64,000 nucleotides of DNA from Yuukianura sp. NJ FZ-2021 (taxonomy: Eukaryota): NCBI GenBank assembly GCA_046563655.1, contig CM102284.1:5146001-5210000 (forward strand), read 5' to 3'. Below are positions 53,683 through 63,535 of this stretch, one piece after another. The notes beneath the pieces are model-generated. The model saw only the letters and a list, made by a program, of their open reading frames with translations, searched no databases and was not told where the DNA came from. The position numbers and the translations under genes were made by a program. Each line of letters opens with the position of its first letter. The first letter of the stretch is position 1.

Positions 53683-54775
53683 ATGGCAAGTTTAGCTATC
53701 AAGAGTACGTTGTCACTTCTCGGTCACCGACTGAATTCATCATCACTGAGGACCTCATCGGTATGTGATTAACTTAACTTGTATCAATCAGTGTTTTAGA
53801 GAAGAAGTGATGTGATGAATTGATAAATAGGGCTATCTTCGCCAAGCAGCTTTACAAGTCACTTCCGACCGCCATTTTCAGACGATTCCAATAGTGGTGG
53901 AACAAAGTGGACGAGGAGAGAGAGCCTATGACATTTACTCACGGCTCCTCAAAGACAGAATTGTGTGCCTAATGGGTCCGGTAAGCAAGTATCCTATCCA
54001 TAATCAATCATACGAGACACTACTACTATGATGAGCCAATTTGACGTTCATGATTTCAAAATTTGTGGTTTCAGATAAATGATGCGACGGCATCTGTTAT
54101 TATTGCTCAACTTTTGTTTCTTCAATCCGAATCTAGCAAGAAACCGATTCACATTTACATAAACAGTCCAGGAGGCAGTGTGACAGGTAAATTCACTTAG
54201 CTAAGTGTAAATTCAGTGTTTGATTTTCATAAACGCAGCTGGCCTTGGCATTTACGACACAATGCAGTACGTCCTTCCGCCTGTTGCTACATGGTGCGTA
54301 GGACAAGCGTGTAGTATGGGCTCTCTTCTTCTTGCTGCTGGTAAACAAATTACAAAACCAGCATCCTTAACAAATCACTTATTATATTGCGTACTGCGTT
54401 CATCGAAGGTACCCCCGGAATGCGCCACTCTCTTCCGAATGCAAGAATTATGATTCACCAACCCTCAGGCGGTGCTCAGGGCCAAGCGACAGATATTCAA
54501 ATCCAAGCCGAAGAAATTCTGAAGTTGAAGAAGCAAATCAACGGGATTTATGTCAAGCACACAGGACAGGACATCCAAATCATTGGTTAGTATCAGGTTA
54601 TTACAAAAATTCTTCTAAAATCAATGTTAATTTAATCACGACAGAGGCCATCATGGAAAGAGACAAATTCATGAGTCCATCGGAGGCCAAAATCTTCGGA
54701 CTCATTGACACCGTCCTGGAGCATCCACCTAAGTACAATCAGGACGAAGCTGACAGGGAAAGCGTAAGTCAGTGA
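53683..54775 (+). CDS. ClpP: ATP-dependent Clp protease proteolytic subunit, mitochondrial
   Basis: Transit-like [26 protein letters not shown], then [59 protein letters not shown] (catalytic Ser), [18 protein letters not shown] and [11 protein letters not shown] at 54773-54775. Confidence 0.97.
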
Positions 54776-55529: not shown

Positions 55530-60706
<5,177 letters not shown>

Positions 60707-60769
60707 GAATTCGGTGGGCCCCCTATCCTGCCTCCAGTACCACCAAGGAGAGTCCGACGACGTCGTAGT

Positions 60770-61093
60770 ATGTTTTGGTCTTCATGTGTGAAAAGGCTAG
60801 AGGATTCGGTCTGCGGCTGTATTCGAAATTGTTGGATCTTTTCTGGAATTGTCTCTGGAGTGTTGTCAGGGTTGGGGGCCGGAGGGGCCGTTGCTTATGT
60901 CATTTCCTCATTTTCCTTAGGAGTCTTGGTAGGAAGTTGTGTCGGATTTTCTTTTGGAATAATTTTTGCTCTTATTGCTGGAGAAGTGACAAATGGAAAA
61001 CAAAAGCAACGGCCCAAGAAAACAAAGCAAGAAAAAGAGGATGAGGAGTGGTTGACCTGGATTTTGGCTACACAGCCCCCACCTGATGTATGA
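60770..61093 (+). CDS. 107-aa membrane-protein ORF, in frame with and directly downstream of the NSF stop (independent ORF or NSF C-terminal extension)
   Basis: ATG-initiated ORF with a ~50-residue Gly-rich hydrophobic stretch (WIFSGIVSGVLSGLGAGGAVAYVISSFSLGVLVGSCVGFSFGIIFALIAG) followed by KQKQRPKKTKQEKEDEE. Its composition is coding-like against very AT-rich flanking DNA. Confidence 0.6.
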   Translation: MFWSSCVKRLEDSVCGCIRNCWIFSGIVSGVLSGLGAGGAVAYVISSFSLGVLVGSCVGFSFGIIFALIAGEVTNGKQKQRPKKTKQEKEDEEWLTWILATQPPPDV

Positions 61094-63535
61094 TTTCCAA
61101 AAACGTTTAAAATTTATGAGTTAATTATAAGAAATCAAAAAATTCAAGTTTTTTTCAAGTAATTGTTCAATTTTCTTTAATGTGCAGTAATTGCCTAATT
61201 TCCGAATTTACAATTTTTCGTTCCGTCAGAGACATTTCCTTCTATAGTTTTCCGGCTTTCGATTAAAGTCGAAAAACTTTGGATTTCTTTTCATCTTACA
61301 AAGTTTCTGTAATTAACTTCATTGTTTTTTGGGTTTTAACAAATTTTTCACTTTTTGGAGTACTTTTTCTGATATTTTTTGGTACTTATCTGGTTAAATC
61401 TACTTTATGTTTTTGTGTCCCACTCCCTCAACCTCTTTTTCTGCTTTGAACTGGGGAGAGAAGACGTGTTTTAAAAAGTACTAGACTTAGCAGGGCTGGA
61501 AGCGATGGAAGTGAAGTTCACTTGCGTAATTCCAGAGATATTCTTTAGGACTTTTAACTGTTATTCAATTCACATCTTCCAGACAAGATGTGAATTTACT
61601 TGCTCCAGAGAAGATAAAGGATTTGGAAATTGAGAATAAGGCAAAGGTTGAACTTAAATGCACTCGCAATTGTTGAATCTAGCTTTAACTGCATGAAGAT
61701 GATCGTGTATGTCTCTTTAGAAAGTTGAATGTGTAGGGTGTTATCTGTATCATCCCTTCACAAGATTTACAATTAAGTAATTTTTGATAAAGGTGACAAT
61801 GAGGCTTCTTGTTCTTAGAGAACAAGCTGGCTTTGTGTCTGAAAAGTCAAAGTCATGTTTTAATTCATCCACTTTCTGACACTTGTTTGCTGAAGTTGGT
61901 GATTACAAGTTAATCATCACTTTTCAGTCAATGTCAATTTGACATTGTCAAATTAACGTTTAGACGGTTGAAAGTTAACGAAGTGTGGGCATTGTCACCT
62001 TGAAATTAATACTTGTACAACACAAACTCAAAAAACTCGAACAGCAATATTTCCTGCACTTTTCGAATTCCATAAAAGTTAATGTGATTTCCAAAATGTA
62101 GAATGTACTATTTACAGCTAAAAAGTAATTTAAACCGAACAATTTAGTTAAACGAGTAACCAATACTAGCACCTAATCATGATTTTAATTACTAGCAAAG
62201 GTAGCACTCTGGGCAAGCAAACAGCAGCATTAATAATTCAAAGCAAAATCAAAGCTCATTTACAAATTTAGTAAGTTGTCATTAGAATTAACTGTTAAAT
62301 TAAACTTAACTCTAACTGAAAACAGATCTTTGGTCTCAGTAGATCTAGTTTTAGGTGCTTGAGTCACAAGGTTCATAATTTCTAAATTAACAATCTAAAA
62401 TTAACAAAGCACTTTCATTTTTTCAAAAAGTGTGTGAACGTTTCATGGACGCATGGAACTGGACATTGGGATTATTGGAGGTGCTAAGTGATGTACATAA
62501 ATTTCGGTGTGTTTGTTCTAAAAAACATTGTTAATCATAACCTCTTTAGCATTTTGTCTCACTAGACGTGTGATTTTAGCACCTCTAAAAACTAATTGTT
62601 TAGAAAGTACGTTAAAAACCGCACTCATTATTAACCAAATACCAAAATGCGTGTGACAAATTTCAAACCAGTTGATCTGAAATATTGTTCATTCGTCTTA
62701 GAACTGTTTAGTATCTTTAAAAAACGTGTTGGGTTTGTTTGGAATTGGGTACCCTTGAAGGGTACATGTGGTAAAACGTAAACTTTGTGTTAGTTGTTAC
62801 GTTTAGCAAGGTTAAGGAGTCTCCTGATGGGTCAACGCGACTAAAGCATTCCAAAAACTTAACAAAAGTTAAATAATTAAATAAAGACGTTCATTTCAAG
62901 TCCTTCAAAATTTTATTTTGAATTTTGAAATTTTGAAACTGAACTTAATAGTTTTGAAGGCGTCGTTCGATTTTCCACGAATTTTTGTGCCAAAAGTTTT
63001 CTTGTAAGAATCAGTTCTTGAAATATTTGAAACCGAATTTGGGTAATTCTTTTAGGAAGGATGGTTTTTTCAAATTCAAAATTTTCAAAGTTTTTTCAAA
63101 AATCAAATTCGCTGGTTTTTATCTTGCAGAATTTTTTTTTGATCAATTGATCAATATTTTTTGTTTTATCTTCTAACCTCGATTTTTTTTCTTGTAAGAT
63201 CGGTGTTTTAGATTATAAAATTTGTTTTTTAAAAATCTTTTAAGTCGATTCGTCTGAATTTTAGACATTTTAATTTTGAAATTGTTTAAATCGAAATGAC
63301 TTTTGGAATTAGGTTAGCGATAAGTTAATATATTTACTTGTTTGCCTGTTTTAGTCGCCTAGAGAGAGTGCTGAGCTGACGATGTGTCATAGGTACTTCG
63401 GGGAAATTACCCAATACGCTTTATATGTTTTGCGTTTGTAGAGGTCATGACCTGAACATAGGGAAATCCAGGATTAGTCTCAATGAAAGTCAAAGTGCAA
63501 CTTTTGTTATTTCCTGTTTTTATTATTTTCTACAG

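Follow-up and report, generated by a model that had tools for sequence, protein, structure and literature searches.

The NSF gene and the frame behind its stop codon

The window, that is the whole stretch of 64,000 nt of Yuukianura sp. DNA that was analysed, carries on its forward strand a gene for the vesicle-fusing ATPase NSF and, behind the stop codon of this gene and in the same frame, a small open reading frame (ORF). The positions of the features are collected in Table 1.

Upon joining of the exons, an NSF product of 751 aa was read, with MEEDGEIEAR as its C-terminus followed by TAG. Residues 1-746 of P0016, the closest named orthologue, were covered by the window in tblastn. The N domain, the D1 and D2 AAA+ domains and the lid are collinear with those of orthologues, and the lid was matched by Pfam NSF_ATPase_lid at 60404-60505 (E 5e-16). 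Compared with NSF/comatose, the gene counts as a full-length orthologue and falls into the same length class; its D1 exon is 93% identical to Orchesella dallaii NSF.

Table 1. Features of the NSF locus and of its downstream region in the window.
Feature	Position	Strand	Basis or remark
NSF coding region	55530-60706	+	tblastn with P0016, GT/AG boundaries, one terminal stop
Eight NSF coding exons	55530-56344, 56424-57021, 57677-57871, 57953-58132, 58211-58395, 60145-60303, 60403-60506, 60687-60706	+	
Last NSF intron, 180 nt	60507-60686	+	GTGAGG donor, T-rich tract, CAG acceptor
NSF stop codon TAG, next base G	60704-60706	+	TAG-G kept in L001
Spacer, 63 nt (21 codons)	60707-60769	+	NSF frame open throughout, ATG absent from all frames
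Nucleotide-constrained block (spacer and first 22 ORF codons)	60707-60835	+	onset right at the stop codon
Candidate alternative 3' splice site (C-rich pyrimidine tract and AG 60736-60737, exon start 60738)	60716-60737	+	conserved in L001
Small ORF, 107 codons and TGA	60770-61093	+	database relatives, coding signature against L001, AlphaFold2 model
Predicted hydrophobic hairpin, ORF residues ~23-67	60836-60970	+	Kyte-Doolittle 19-residue windows > 1.4
Predicted tail helix, ORF residues 86-101	61025-61072	+	AlphaFold2 helix and invariant columns (9 sequences)
ATTAAA, another possible poly(A) signal	61262-61267	+	pattern scan
Conserved block, presumed shared 3' UTR, 77% identical to L001 over 112 nt	61589-61700	+	blastn
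Second conserved 3' UTR block	62026-62089	+	blastn, L001 against window
ATTAAA, possible poly(A) signal past the second conserved block	62299-62304	+	pattern scan

The comparison DNA was one locus on a related metagenome contig (L001), and all the codon-change counts given here refer to these two species. The metagenome scan yielded only this locus, and no further one was found in prokaryote genome contigs or in viral contigs.

The initial annotation had spliced 60506 to 60687 and ended NSF as EEDGEIEAR before the TAG. The junction was confirmed by its donor (G/GTGAGG at 60506/60507) and its acceptor (TTTTTACAG/G at 60686/60687); the C-terminus was supported independently by the C-termini of orthologues and by silent changes in L001. 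The last intron could not be aligned with L001. The codons that follow it are conserved as protein: the GEIEAR codons differ at three positions, all of them third positions, and one further silent change lies in the split Gly codon. An unspliced ending was rejected because these silent changes and the orthologue C-termini fit the spliced form. In the two full-length NSF orthologues that are closest, the C-termini read AIEIRG and AIELRG, and the stop comes one codon later than in the window.

Past the TAG, the frame described earlier was found again: it is open from 60707 to the TGA at 61091-61093 (128 codons), with an ATG at 60770. The reported PPVPPRR codons lie at 60731-60751, and behind them come a hydrophobic stretch rich in Gly and then a charged tail. 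L001 has the same layout, in which the TAG, the open in-frame spacer, the PPVPPRR codons and the ATG are all kept. Conservation of the frame and of the TAG at an orthologous NSF 3' end, to which the initial annotation had pointed, was thereby found in one other species.

The small ORF and its protein family

When the distal 84 ORF codons were compared with L001, the changes were distributed 17:11:51 over the three codon positions, and every indel was a multiple of three. The pN/pS values were 0.20/0.75 for the hairpin and 0.12/0.71 for the tail. Judged by this pattern of substitution, the downstream frame is truly coding, and its product would be a protein of ~100 residues with a predicted membrane hairpin. 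The comparison of the two sequences is enough to show that the ORF is conserved and located behind NSF in both species.

The relatives of the ORF form a family of small, unnamed proteins of 58-103 aa with an invariant tail. Among 60 candidates, four had E <= 0.01 (82-102 aa). A HMMER profile run against 1.84 billion representatives gave seven matches, four of which were short proteins with the same tail. Another match, P0007, was rejected, as only its Gly-rich part was matched and Pfam identifies it as an Ig-repeat protein; P0010, a short Val/Gly-rich protein devoid of the tail, was counted as spurious. In the long profile match P0009, similarity was limited to the Gly-rich part. Across nine aligned family sequences, 15 columns are invariant. 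All the true database relatives are short stand-alone predictions. In these, a Met lies at the beginning of the conserved core or close to it; their starts are gene-caller calls and are no evidence of real ones. NCBI and UniRef name no family member, and all the members come from JGI, Logan or ENA gene calls. This absence from annotated proteomes fits an ORF concealed in a 3' UTR, and it follows that standard eukaryotic annotation misses the family.

The protein starts with a Cys-rich N-terminus, continues with a Gly-rich hydrophobic hairpin of two helices and finishes with a basic-acidic tail whose last part is a conserved EDEEWL.WI helix. In the AlphaFold2 model, the hairpin helices span residues 2-34 and 39-77, at moderate confidence (mean pLDDT 66). 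The tail residues invariant in the family are E90, D91, E93, W94, L95, W97 and I98. The prediction of a complex between the NSF N domain and the ORF tail scored 0.01 against a mark of 0.34, in a run made without controls, which speaks neither for nor against binding.

Among known families, Romo1 and DUF5862 are likewise short hairpin proteins with two Gly-rich helices. Their profile similarity to the ORF is weak (15.4-16.5 bits against cut-offs of 27.6 and 33.3; 14.1-16.5 bits against 27.6-33.3 when DUF5316 is included), and the Cys-rich head and EDEEWL.WI tail of the ORF have no counterpart in them. The best score of a protein atlas search was 0.77, below the useful level, and a PDB sequence search with the family profile returned only chance-level transmembrane matches (best E 0.025).

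A constrained block that begins at the stop codon

The spacer is 93% identical to that of L001. Over its 20 aligned codons, two synonymous and two non-synonymous changes and one 3-nt indel were counted; the changes fall 1:1:2 by codon position and show no 3-nt periodicity in these two species. The chance that such an ORF is in frame (1 in 3) and that the 63 nt before it are open (51% of 20,000 spacer shuffles) amounts to ~0.17, so in-frame openness alone is unremarkable. PPVPPRR, which L001 keeps, fits PxxPxR, the class II SH3-ligand consensus, and would be a candidate ligand if these codons are translated. PxxPx[RK] occurred in 2.1% of the spacer shuffles.

The low divergence of the spacer extends past the ATG. 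In the 42 aligned codons of the constrained block the changes are distributed 3:3:4 by codon position, in contrast to the pattern of the remaining 84. The synonymous-site difference is 0.9 before the stop, 0.115 and 0.198 within the block and ~0.74 downstream. At ATG 60770 the pattern of conservation does not shift, the first 22 ORF codons evolving in the same manner as the spacer. The ~130 nt that follow the stop are, in the aligned pair, under strong constraint at the nucleotide level, which is explained by none of the readings considered below.

RNA structure as the cause of this conservation was unsupported. Six folds of 51-147 nt after the stop, computed in both species, gave z-scores from -0.32 to +0.72 and were no better than shuffles; none of 40 predicted pairs showed compensatory changes, and no Rfam match was obtained.

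Transcript evidence and probable translation from a separate start

A pattern scan of 60700-62400 and of L001 gave neither AATAAA nor ATTAAA in the part from the NSF stop to the end of the ORF. As no poly(A) signal separates them, the ORF was placed inside the NSF transcript. In the conserved block at 61589-61700 no fold on either strand beat the shuffles, and there was no Rfam match. One 185-nt contig of an RNA library is collinear with the window over 60693-60877 and spans both the TAG and the ATG; it contains no junction, and DNA carry-over is a possible source of it. The RNA data come from one run (0.16 share of words), which gave no cover of the NSF exons within 59900-61500, an absence that counts as no finding.

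If the ORF lies within the NSF transcript, NSF and the small protein form a dicistronic pair. This is the reading that we consider most likely, at about an even chance: the ORF product would be translated on its own, with its start at ATG 60770. The start, the common transcript and the way in which initiation occurs are all inferred. The stretch 60770-61093 would then be a gene of its own for a predicted small membrane protein, whose Cys-rich N-terminus looks palmitoylation-like, whose Gly-rich two-helix hairpin would leave both protein ends on one face of the membrane, and whose charged tail helix is conserved. This stretch would represent a conserved downstream ORF within what annotators take as the NSF 3' UTR. 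Ribosomes would reach ATG 60770 either by internal entry or by re-initiation after the TAG; the latter is proposed because this ATG, conserved in L001, is the first one past the NSF stop. The conserved ~130 nt from the stop codon may act as a cis element for initiation at the ORF.

Known pairs of this kind support such an arrangement. In the part of the FlyBase account available (PMC4528330), 159 dicistronic gene pairs are given for D. melanogaster, most of them requiring internal initiation, and many such loci also yield monocistronic transcripts. As described there, and as found here, two conserved ORFs share one strand without overlapping, no poly(A) signal separates them, the second is small and begins with a conserved ATG, and behind a long upstream ORF internal initiation or re-initiation is invoked. 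Unlike the pairs described in that part, the ORF here is in frame with the upstream stop behind an open spacer, the spacer has changed far less than the synonymous sites around it, and the shared transcript is presumed.

Several points count against dicistronic translation. Re-initiation after an ORF of 751 codons is inefficient. Neither a promoter nor an internal-entry element was shown for the ORF. The ORF lies in the NSF frame behind a spacer open in both species, for which the chance calculated above is ~0.17, and the sole spacer indel is of 3 nt. The conservation pattern, moreover, runs unbroken through the ATG.

Possible read-through of the NSF stop codon

The first alternative is a programmed read-through of the TAG, by which a fraction of the ribosomes would append 128 residues to NSF. 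The product would be NSF followed by a Pro-rich and basic linker with PxxPxR, the membrane hairpin and the conserved tail, and the sequence after the stop would stimulate the read-through. We consider this rather unlikely, in spite of a number of features that it would account for. Both species have the ORF in frame behind an open spacer, keep TAG as the stop codon and differ in the spacer by no indel other than one of 3 nt. The constraint starts exactly at the stop, where the synonymous-site difference falls from 0.9 to 0.115, and PPVPPRR is kept in L001, a motif of rare occurrence in the shuffles. Furthermore, the same-side topology suggested by the hairpin model is the one that a C-terminal addition to a cytosolic protein would need.

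The insect genes with read-through offer a close comparison. In the excerpts available of PMC5100048, PMC3840789 and PMC13278127, conserved in-frame coding sequence comes directly past a conserved stop and nucleotide conservation is raised after it, as is the case here; NSF is also a synaptic gene, like those in the available parts of the Jungreis and Dunn catalogues. For programmed read-through in Drosophila, the portion of PMC13278127 at hand describes raised post-stop conservation (~75 nt in the top tier) with 3-nt periodicity, an enrichment of C at +4 and further context preferences for A at +5 and G at +9. The A at +5 of the top-tier genes is present in the window. On the other hand, the leaky context is absent: G follows the TAG in both species in place of TGA-C or the enriched C at +4, and there is no G at +9. 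The 1:1:2 changes of the spacer, half of them non-synonymous, lack periodicity in the two species. No stable structure was predicted, neither a covarying pair nor an Rfam match was obtained, and a conserved in-frame ATG stands before the conserved core. In the accessible text on these insect genes, extensions are typically disordered tails; here a folded membrane hairpin would be appended.

In annotation, read-through is commoner than dicistronic pairs, with 328 D. melanogaster genes against the 159 pairs, and it is thought to be abundant in insects and crustaceans, according to the same available part of PMC4528330. The rules of a read-through screen, in the section of PMC5100048 available, class a locus as dicistronic when a conserved in-frame ATG is preceded by no coding signal, and, more generally, accept read-through over a dicistronic or alternatively spliced reading only if a coding signature is seen from the stop to the ATG or splice site.

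The databases also bear on any fused form. Among the 120 NSF orthologues listed, none carries such a tail, and 106 end 4-12 residues after the EE[ED] motif. A search for longer relatives of the ORF, all of whose known relatives stand alone, gave no fused form either; this is weak evidence, because a fused isoform might sit inside NSF clusters. In addition, the two closest orthologues stop one codon later, at a position that differs from the TAG at issue.

NSF is regarded as a soluble enzyme that is recruited to the membrane only through SNAPs, and no listed orthologue has a membrane segment such as the hypothetical fusion would have. A C-terminal anchor would be awkward, since the D2 end of NSF faces away from the membrane in the 20S complex. 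In a full-text literature search no report of NSF read-through or of membrane-anchored NSF was found, nor any under comt/Nsf in the main text available of PMC13278127, supplementary gene lists being outside the scope of both. A parallel in principle is the dual targeting of cytosolic enzymes through read-through or alternative splicing, with peroxisomal lactate dehydrogenase as an example, described in the part of PMC4359377 available: there a C-terminally extended minor isoform relocates a soluble enzyme, as an NSF fusion would if it exists. Such extensions are, in that part, a few residues with a targeting signal after a leaky UGA, whereas here 128 residues with a hairpin would follow TAG-G.

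Other possible routes to the downstream frame

In a variant of separate translation, the small protein would have a longer N-terminus, from a non-AUG start in the spacer, or would be made from its own mRNA starting in or near the last NSF intron. We hold this to be improbable. The non-AUG start would be the in-frame CTG at 60728-60730, which has an A at -3, so that PPVPPRR and the basic run would become part of the small protein itself. L001 has the same CTG in the same context, and in the second half of the spacer all changes are synonymous apart from one codon indel. As for an own mRNA, the RNA contig starts at 60693, 6 nt past the acceptor, but the end of a low-depth contig says nothing on the start of a transcript. 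The monocistronic transcripts of many dicistronic loci, mentioned above from the available part of PMC4528330, would offer a precedent. The intron, not being alignable with L001, shows no conserved promoter motif, and a separate gene of 107 codons would be expected in some annotated springtail proteomes, where no named relative appears.

The initial annotation had held that no nearby AG brings the donor past the TAG into the ORF frame. This did not hold: two of the 16 AGs in 60600-60800, with exon starts at 60738 and 60753, are in frame. As an in-frame candidate acceptor exists, read-through would not be the sole route to an NSF fusion. From donor 60506 to exon start 60738, splicing would skip GEIEAR-TAG and the first 10 spacer codons, and NSF would be fused directly to the basic stretch and the ORF, without an intact PxxPxR. 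The junction is in frame, its split codon giving Val. The tract has 15 pyrimidines in 20 positions, and it is kept in L001 together with its AG. Of the four spacer changes, the two upstream of 60738 alter an amino acid, and one of these is a C-to-T in the tract; the two downstream are silent, and the indel there comprises a single codon. In the section available of PMC5100048, read-through screens favour a predicted 3' splice site in the second ORF whenever non-coding sequence precedes it.

Nevertheless, use of this acceptor appears very improbable. Its tract holds 11 C and 4 T in 20 positions with T at +1, while all seven real NSF acceptors have 9-13 T and 2-4 C with G or A at +1. Four further AGs lie between the main acceptor and this site, and by inspection alone no branch-point-like sequence was evident. 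The sole RNA contig is collinear across the site, the database searches for fused NSF described above were negative, and the counts involved are tiny.

Possible consequences for NSF

That some springtail NSF molecules bear a membrane hairpin of their own, either by read-through of the TAG or by the in-frame acceptor at 60738, is rather unlikely. If it were so, the ORF would be at once a stand-alone small protein and a module tethering the SNARE-disassembly ATPase to the membrane; an SH3-type docking motif would be present as well in the read-through form, and the hyper-conserved 130 nt would set the ratio of the two products. The membrane-protein frame joined to the NSF stop would mean either an unannotated partner gene on the same mRNA or a tethered NSF isoform. 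The locus is a compact test case for separating read-through, alternative splicing and dicistronic translation, all three being formally possible.

Other frames over the region

In both species the +1 frame stays open over ~90 codons; dual coding was rejected, as this frame has a stop inside the spacer and its products diverge strongly outside the conserved nucleotides. ORFs of the minus strand over the region were rejected because the periodicity matches the + frame.

NSF gene and last splice junction

A full NSF gene is present on the forward strand of the window. Alignment of the window with P0016 from Orchesella dallaii, the nearest named orthologue (93% identical over the D1 exon), gave eight coding exons, whose joined reading frame has 751 codons and a single stop, at its end. 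The last junction and the C-terminus ...MEEDGEIEAR-stop were recovered as described in the initial annotation. The exon preceding this junction matched the end of the Pfam NSF lid domain (E 5e-16), and the two closest full-length orthologues, P0016 and P0017, terminate in ...AIEIRG and ...AIELRG; since these endings agree with the spliced and not with the unspliced ending, the splice is supported. Further support came from L001, a related metagenome contig of 1,572 nt and the sole second locus in the DNA-level comparison, in which an unalignable intron is followed by a CAG acceptor, the GEIEAR codons, TAG-G, an open spacer of 60 nt, an ATG and the ORF. The mini-exon after its acceptor is the same as in the window, and its GEIEAR codons differ from those of the window by silent changes only (three at third positions of five codons and a fourth in the split Gly codon). 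No further such locus turned up when prokaryote and viral contigs were scanned.

P0016 and P0017 end in R-G-stop, one residue later than the R-stop of the window and L001, so the NSF stop has shifted by one codon among close relatives.

Coordinates of the features in the window and in L001
Feature	Window	L001
ClpP-like open frames (+)	54211-54772	
NSF, eight coding exons (+)	55530-60706	
Inverted repeat, NSF intron 2	57079-57626	
Open frames, NSF intron 5	58489-59210	
Last NSF donor, G/GTGAGG	60506/60507	
Last NSF acceptor, TTTTTACAG/G	60686/60687	
RNA-library contig match	60693-60877	
NSF stop, TAG	60704-60706	
Spacer	60707-60769	
Constrained block	60707-60835	
In-frame alternative exon starts	60738; 60753	
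ORF (+), from ATG	60770-61093	
ORF stop, TGA	61091-61093	
ATTAAA sites	61262; 62299	1485
Conserved island 1	61589-61700	1037-1139
Conserved island 2	62026-62089	1412-1465

A small gene downstream of the NSF stop

The initial annotation had proposed that read-through of the TAG yields a membrane-tethered NSF carrying a PPVPPRR SH3-ligand motif. As the NSF-TAG splice, a frame open for 128 codons past the TAG and an ATG inside it are all present, the underlying sequence observation was confirmed. The downstream ORF is a real gene. The GC content is 0.45-0.49 across 60500-61099 and drops to 0.26-0.33 beyond. Compared with L001, the distal ORF shows the pattern of coding sequence under purifying selection: pS and pN are 0.75 and 0.20 in the hydrophobic region and 0.71 and 0.12 in the tail, changes in the distal 84 codons are distributed 17:11:51 by codon position, and every indel in the ORF is a multiple of three.

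Four relatives of 82-102 aa were found among 60 candidates by word-indexed search. A HMMER profile search of 1.84 billion representatives gave seven matches, four of which (P0002, P0005, P0006 and P0008) are short proteins sharing the ORF tail. Of the others, P0010 is short, of low complexity and without the tail and was counted as spurious; P0007, an Ig-repeat protein, and P0009 are long proteins with similarity confined to the Gly-rich part. Across nine family members 15 columns are invariant, mostly in ...EVTNG..., PKK and EDEEWL.WI. The small protein falls outside all described families. The ORF matched zero Pfam families at cut-off, its family had zero related entries among solved structures and protein atlas clusters, and no member bears an NCBI or UniRef name, all being JGI, Logan or ENA gene calls. 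The AlphaFold2 model (mean pLDDT 66) contains helices 2-34 and 39-77 separated by a four-residue turn, followed by disordered residues and, in the tail, a helix at 86-101; the product is thus predicted to be a hairpin with both ends on the same membrane side.

The more distant member P0005 has a 13-residue insertion inside the first hydrophobic stretch, which looks like a translated intron; the gene, intronless in the window and L001, is possibly split in some lineages.

Constraint after the stop codon

The ~130 nt after the stop are constrained by something besides protein. Acting at the nucleotide level and lacking codon periodicity, this constraint sets in precisely at the NSF stop and reaches 22 codons into the ORF. 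Between the stop codon and ~60835 silent sites are almost frozen: pS is 0.115 for the spacer, at 93% nucleotide identity to L001, and 0.198 for ORF codons 1-23, at 87%. On either side they are saturated, with pS of 0.9 in EIEAR before the stop and 0.71-0.75 over the distal ORF. Over the 42 codons of the block, changes are 3:3:4 by codon position, and, assuming the rate of the remaining ORF, P is ~1.5e-7 for at most two changes in 17 silent sites. The constraint may stem from an element that stimulates read-through, one for re-initiation or internal entry near the ATG, signals for splicing a terminal exon that has just 20 nt of NSF coding sequence, or a site where the NSF mRNA is bound; all are candidates. 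A thermodynamically stable fold is not supported (z from -0.32 to +0.72, six folds, two species); none of 40 predicted pairs showed compensatory changes, and the block had no Rfam match.

In the spacer, the 20 codons aligned between these two species only show two synonymous and two non-synonymous changes (1:1:2 by codon position) and one 3-nt indel inside a CGA/CGT run. The PPVPPRR codons are identical in L001; a PxxPx[RK] motif occurs by chance in 2.1% of spacer shuffles, and the chance of a spacer both in frame and open is ~0.17 (1/3 for frame, 51% of shuffles open).

Expression of the small protein

Separate initiation of the small protein on the NSF transcript is the leading reading, to which we give an even chance. 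The closest match to how the arrangement works is the insect dicistronic pair or a conserved downstream ORF. Such pairs are of the same order as read-through genes in D. melanogaster (159 against 328; PMC4528330).

Read-through of the NSF TAG, which we consider unlikely, is favoured by the ORF lying in the NSF frame behind an open spacer, by retention of the TAG in L001 and by conservation beginning sharply at the stop. Top-tier read-through genes have elevated conservation for ~75 nt past the stop, though with periodicity (PMC13278127). An A stands at +5, but +4 is G instead of C and G at +9 is absent; the leaky stop context was sought and not found, no structure is predicted, and the locus is not demonstrably in the read-through class. 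Moreover, the ATG is conserved, being the first past the stop in the window and L001, and the folded hairpin with its highly specific conserved tail resembles an independent protein. None of the 120 listed NSF orthologues has such a tail (in 106 the end could be recognised, 4-12 residues past EE[ED]), and a search for longer ORF relatives returned none. In the 20S complex the D2 end of NSF faces away from the membrane, which also argues against read-through. The read-through screen of PMC5100048 has explicit rules: a conserved in-frame ATG with no coding signal ahead of it leads to the dicistronic class, and a predicted acceptor in the stretch to the alternatively spliced class; the ATG and predicted-acceptor features they address both occur here.

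A tethered NSF isoform, if true, would be a surprising result, and its existence is doubtful. In the full-text literature as available, supplementary gene lists aside, there was no report of NSF read-through or membrane-anchored NSF, nor any such report under comt or Nsf in the available text of a 2026 Drosophila read-through survey, with the same exception.

A small protein with a longer N-terminus or its own mRNA is improbable. Both non-synonymous spacer changes fall in the first ten codons, and both synonymous changes and the indel in the last ten; an upstream non-AUG start, an alternative acceptor or chance fits this split equally well.

According to the initial annotation, none of the nearby AG acceptors it had tried bypasses the TAG into the frame. 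Of the 16 AG positions in 60600-60800, each tested with the last donor, two give exon starts that do so in frame, and an NSF-ORF fusion through the one at 60738 would therefore not depend on read-through. This site is kept in L001, and 15 of the 20 nt upstream of its AG are pyrimidines, but with 4 T, 11 C and a following T it departs from all seven real NSF acceptors (9-13 T, 2-4 C, then G or A), which makes such a fusion very improbable. Other readings share the little that remains.

Transcript and other features of the window

A pattern scan found no AATAAA or ATTAAA between the NSF stop and the ORF end. The single public run matching the stretch provided one 185-nt RNA-library contig, identical to the window and collinear through TAG and ATG; it contains no splice junction, and DNA carry-over is possible. 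Two islands, ~77-78% identical to L001, stand in otherwise unalignable sequence 0.5-1 kb past the ORF, with no predicted structure or Rfam match. Their conservation suggests a long shared 3' UTR, in which they may be regulatory sites.

Directly upstream of NSF, open frames resemble, by eye in translation, a ClpP-type protease subunit. A 238-nt inverted repeat lies in NSF intron 2; its arms, separated by 72 nt, are 98% complementary, and internally it consists of short tandem units containing GACATCGAAA. It looks like a foldback-type element. In the 1.7-kb intron 5, open frames on both strands encode similar short peptide strings (e.g. ...GKGP...), which suggests repeated elements.
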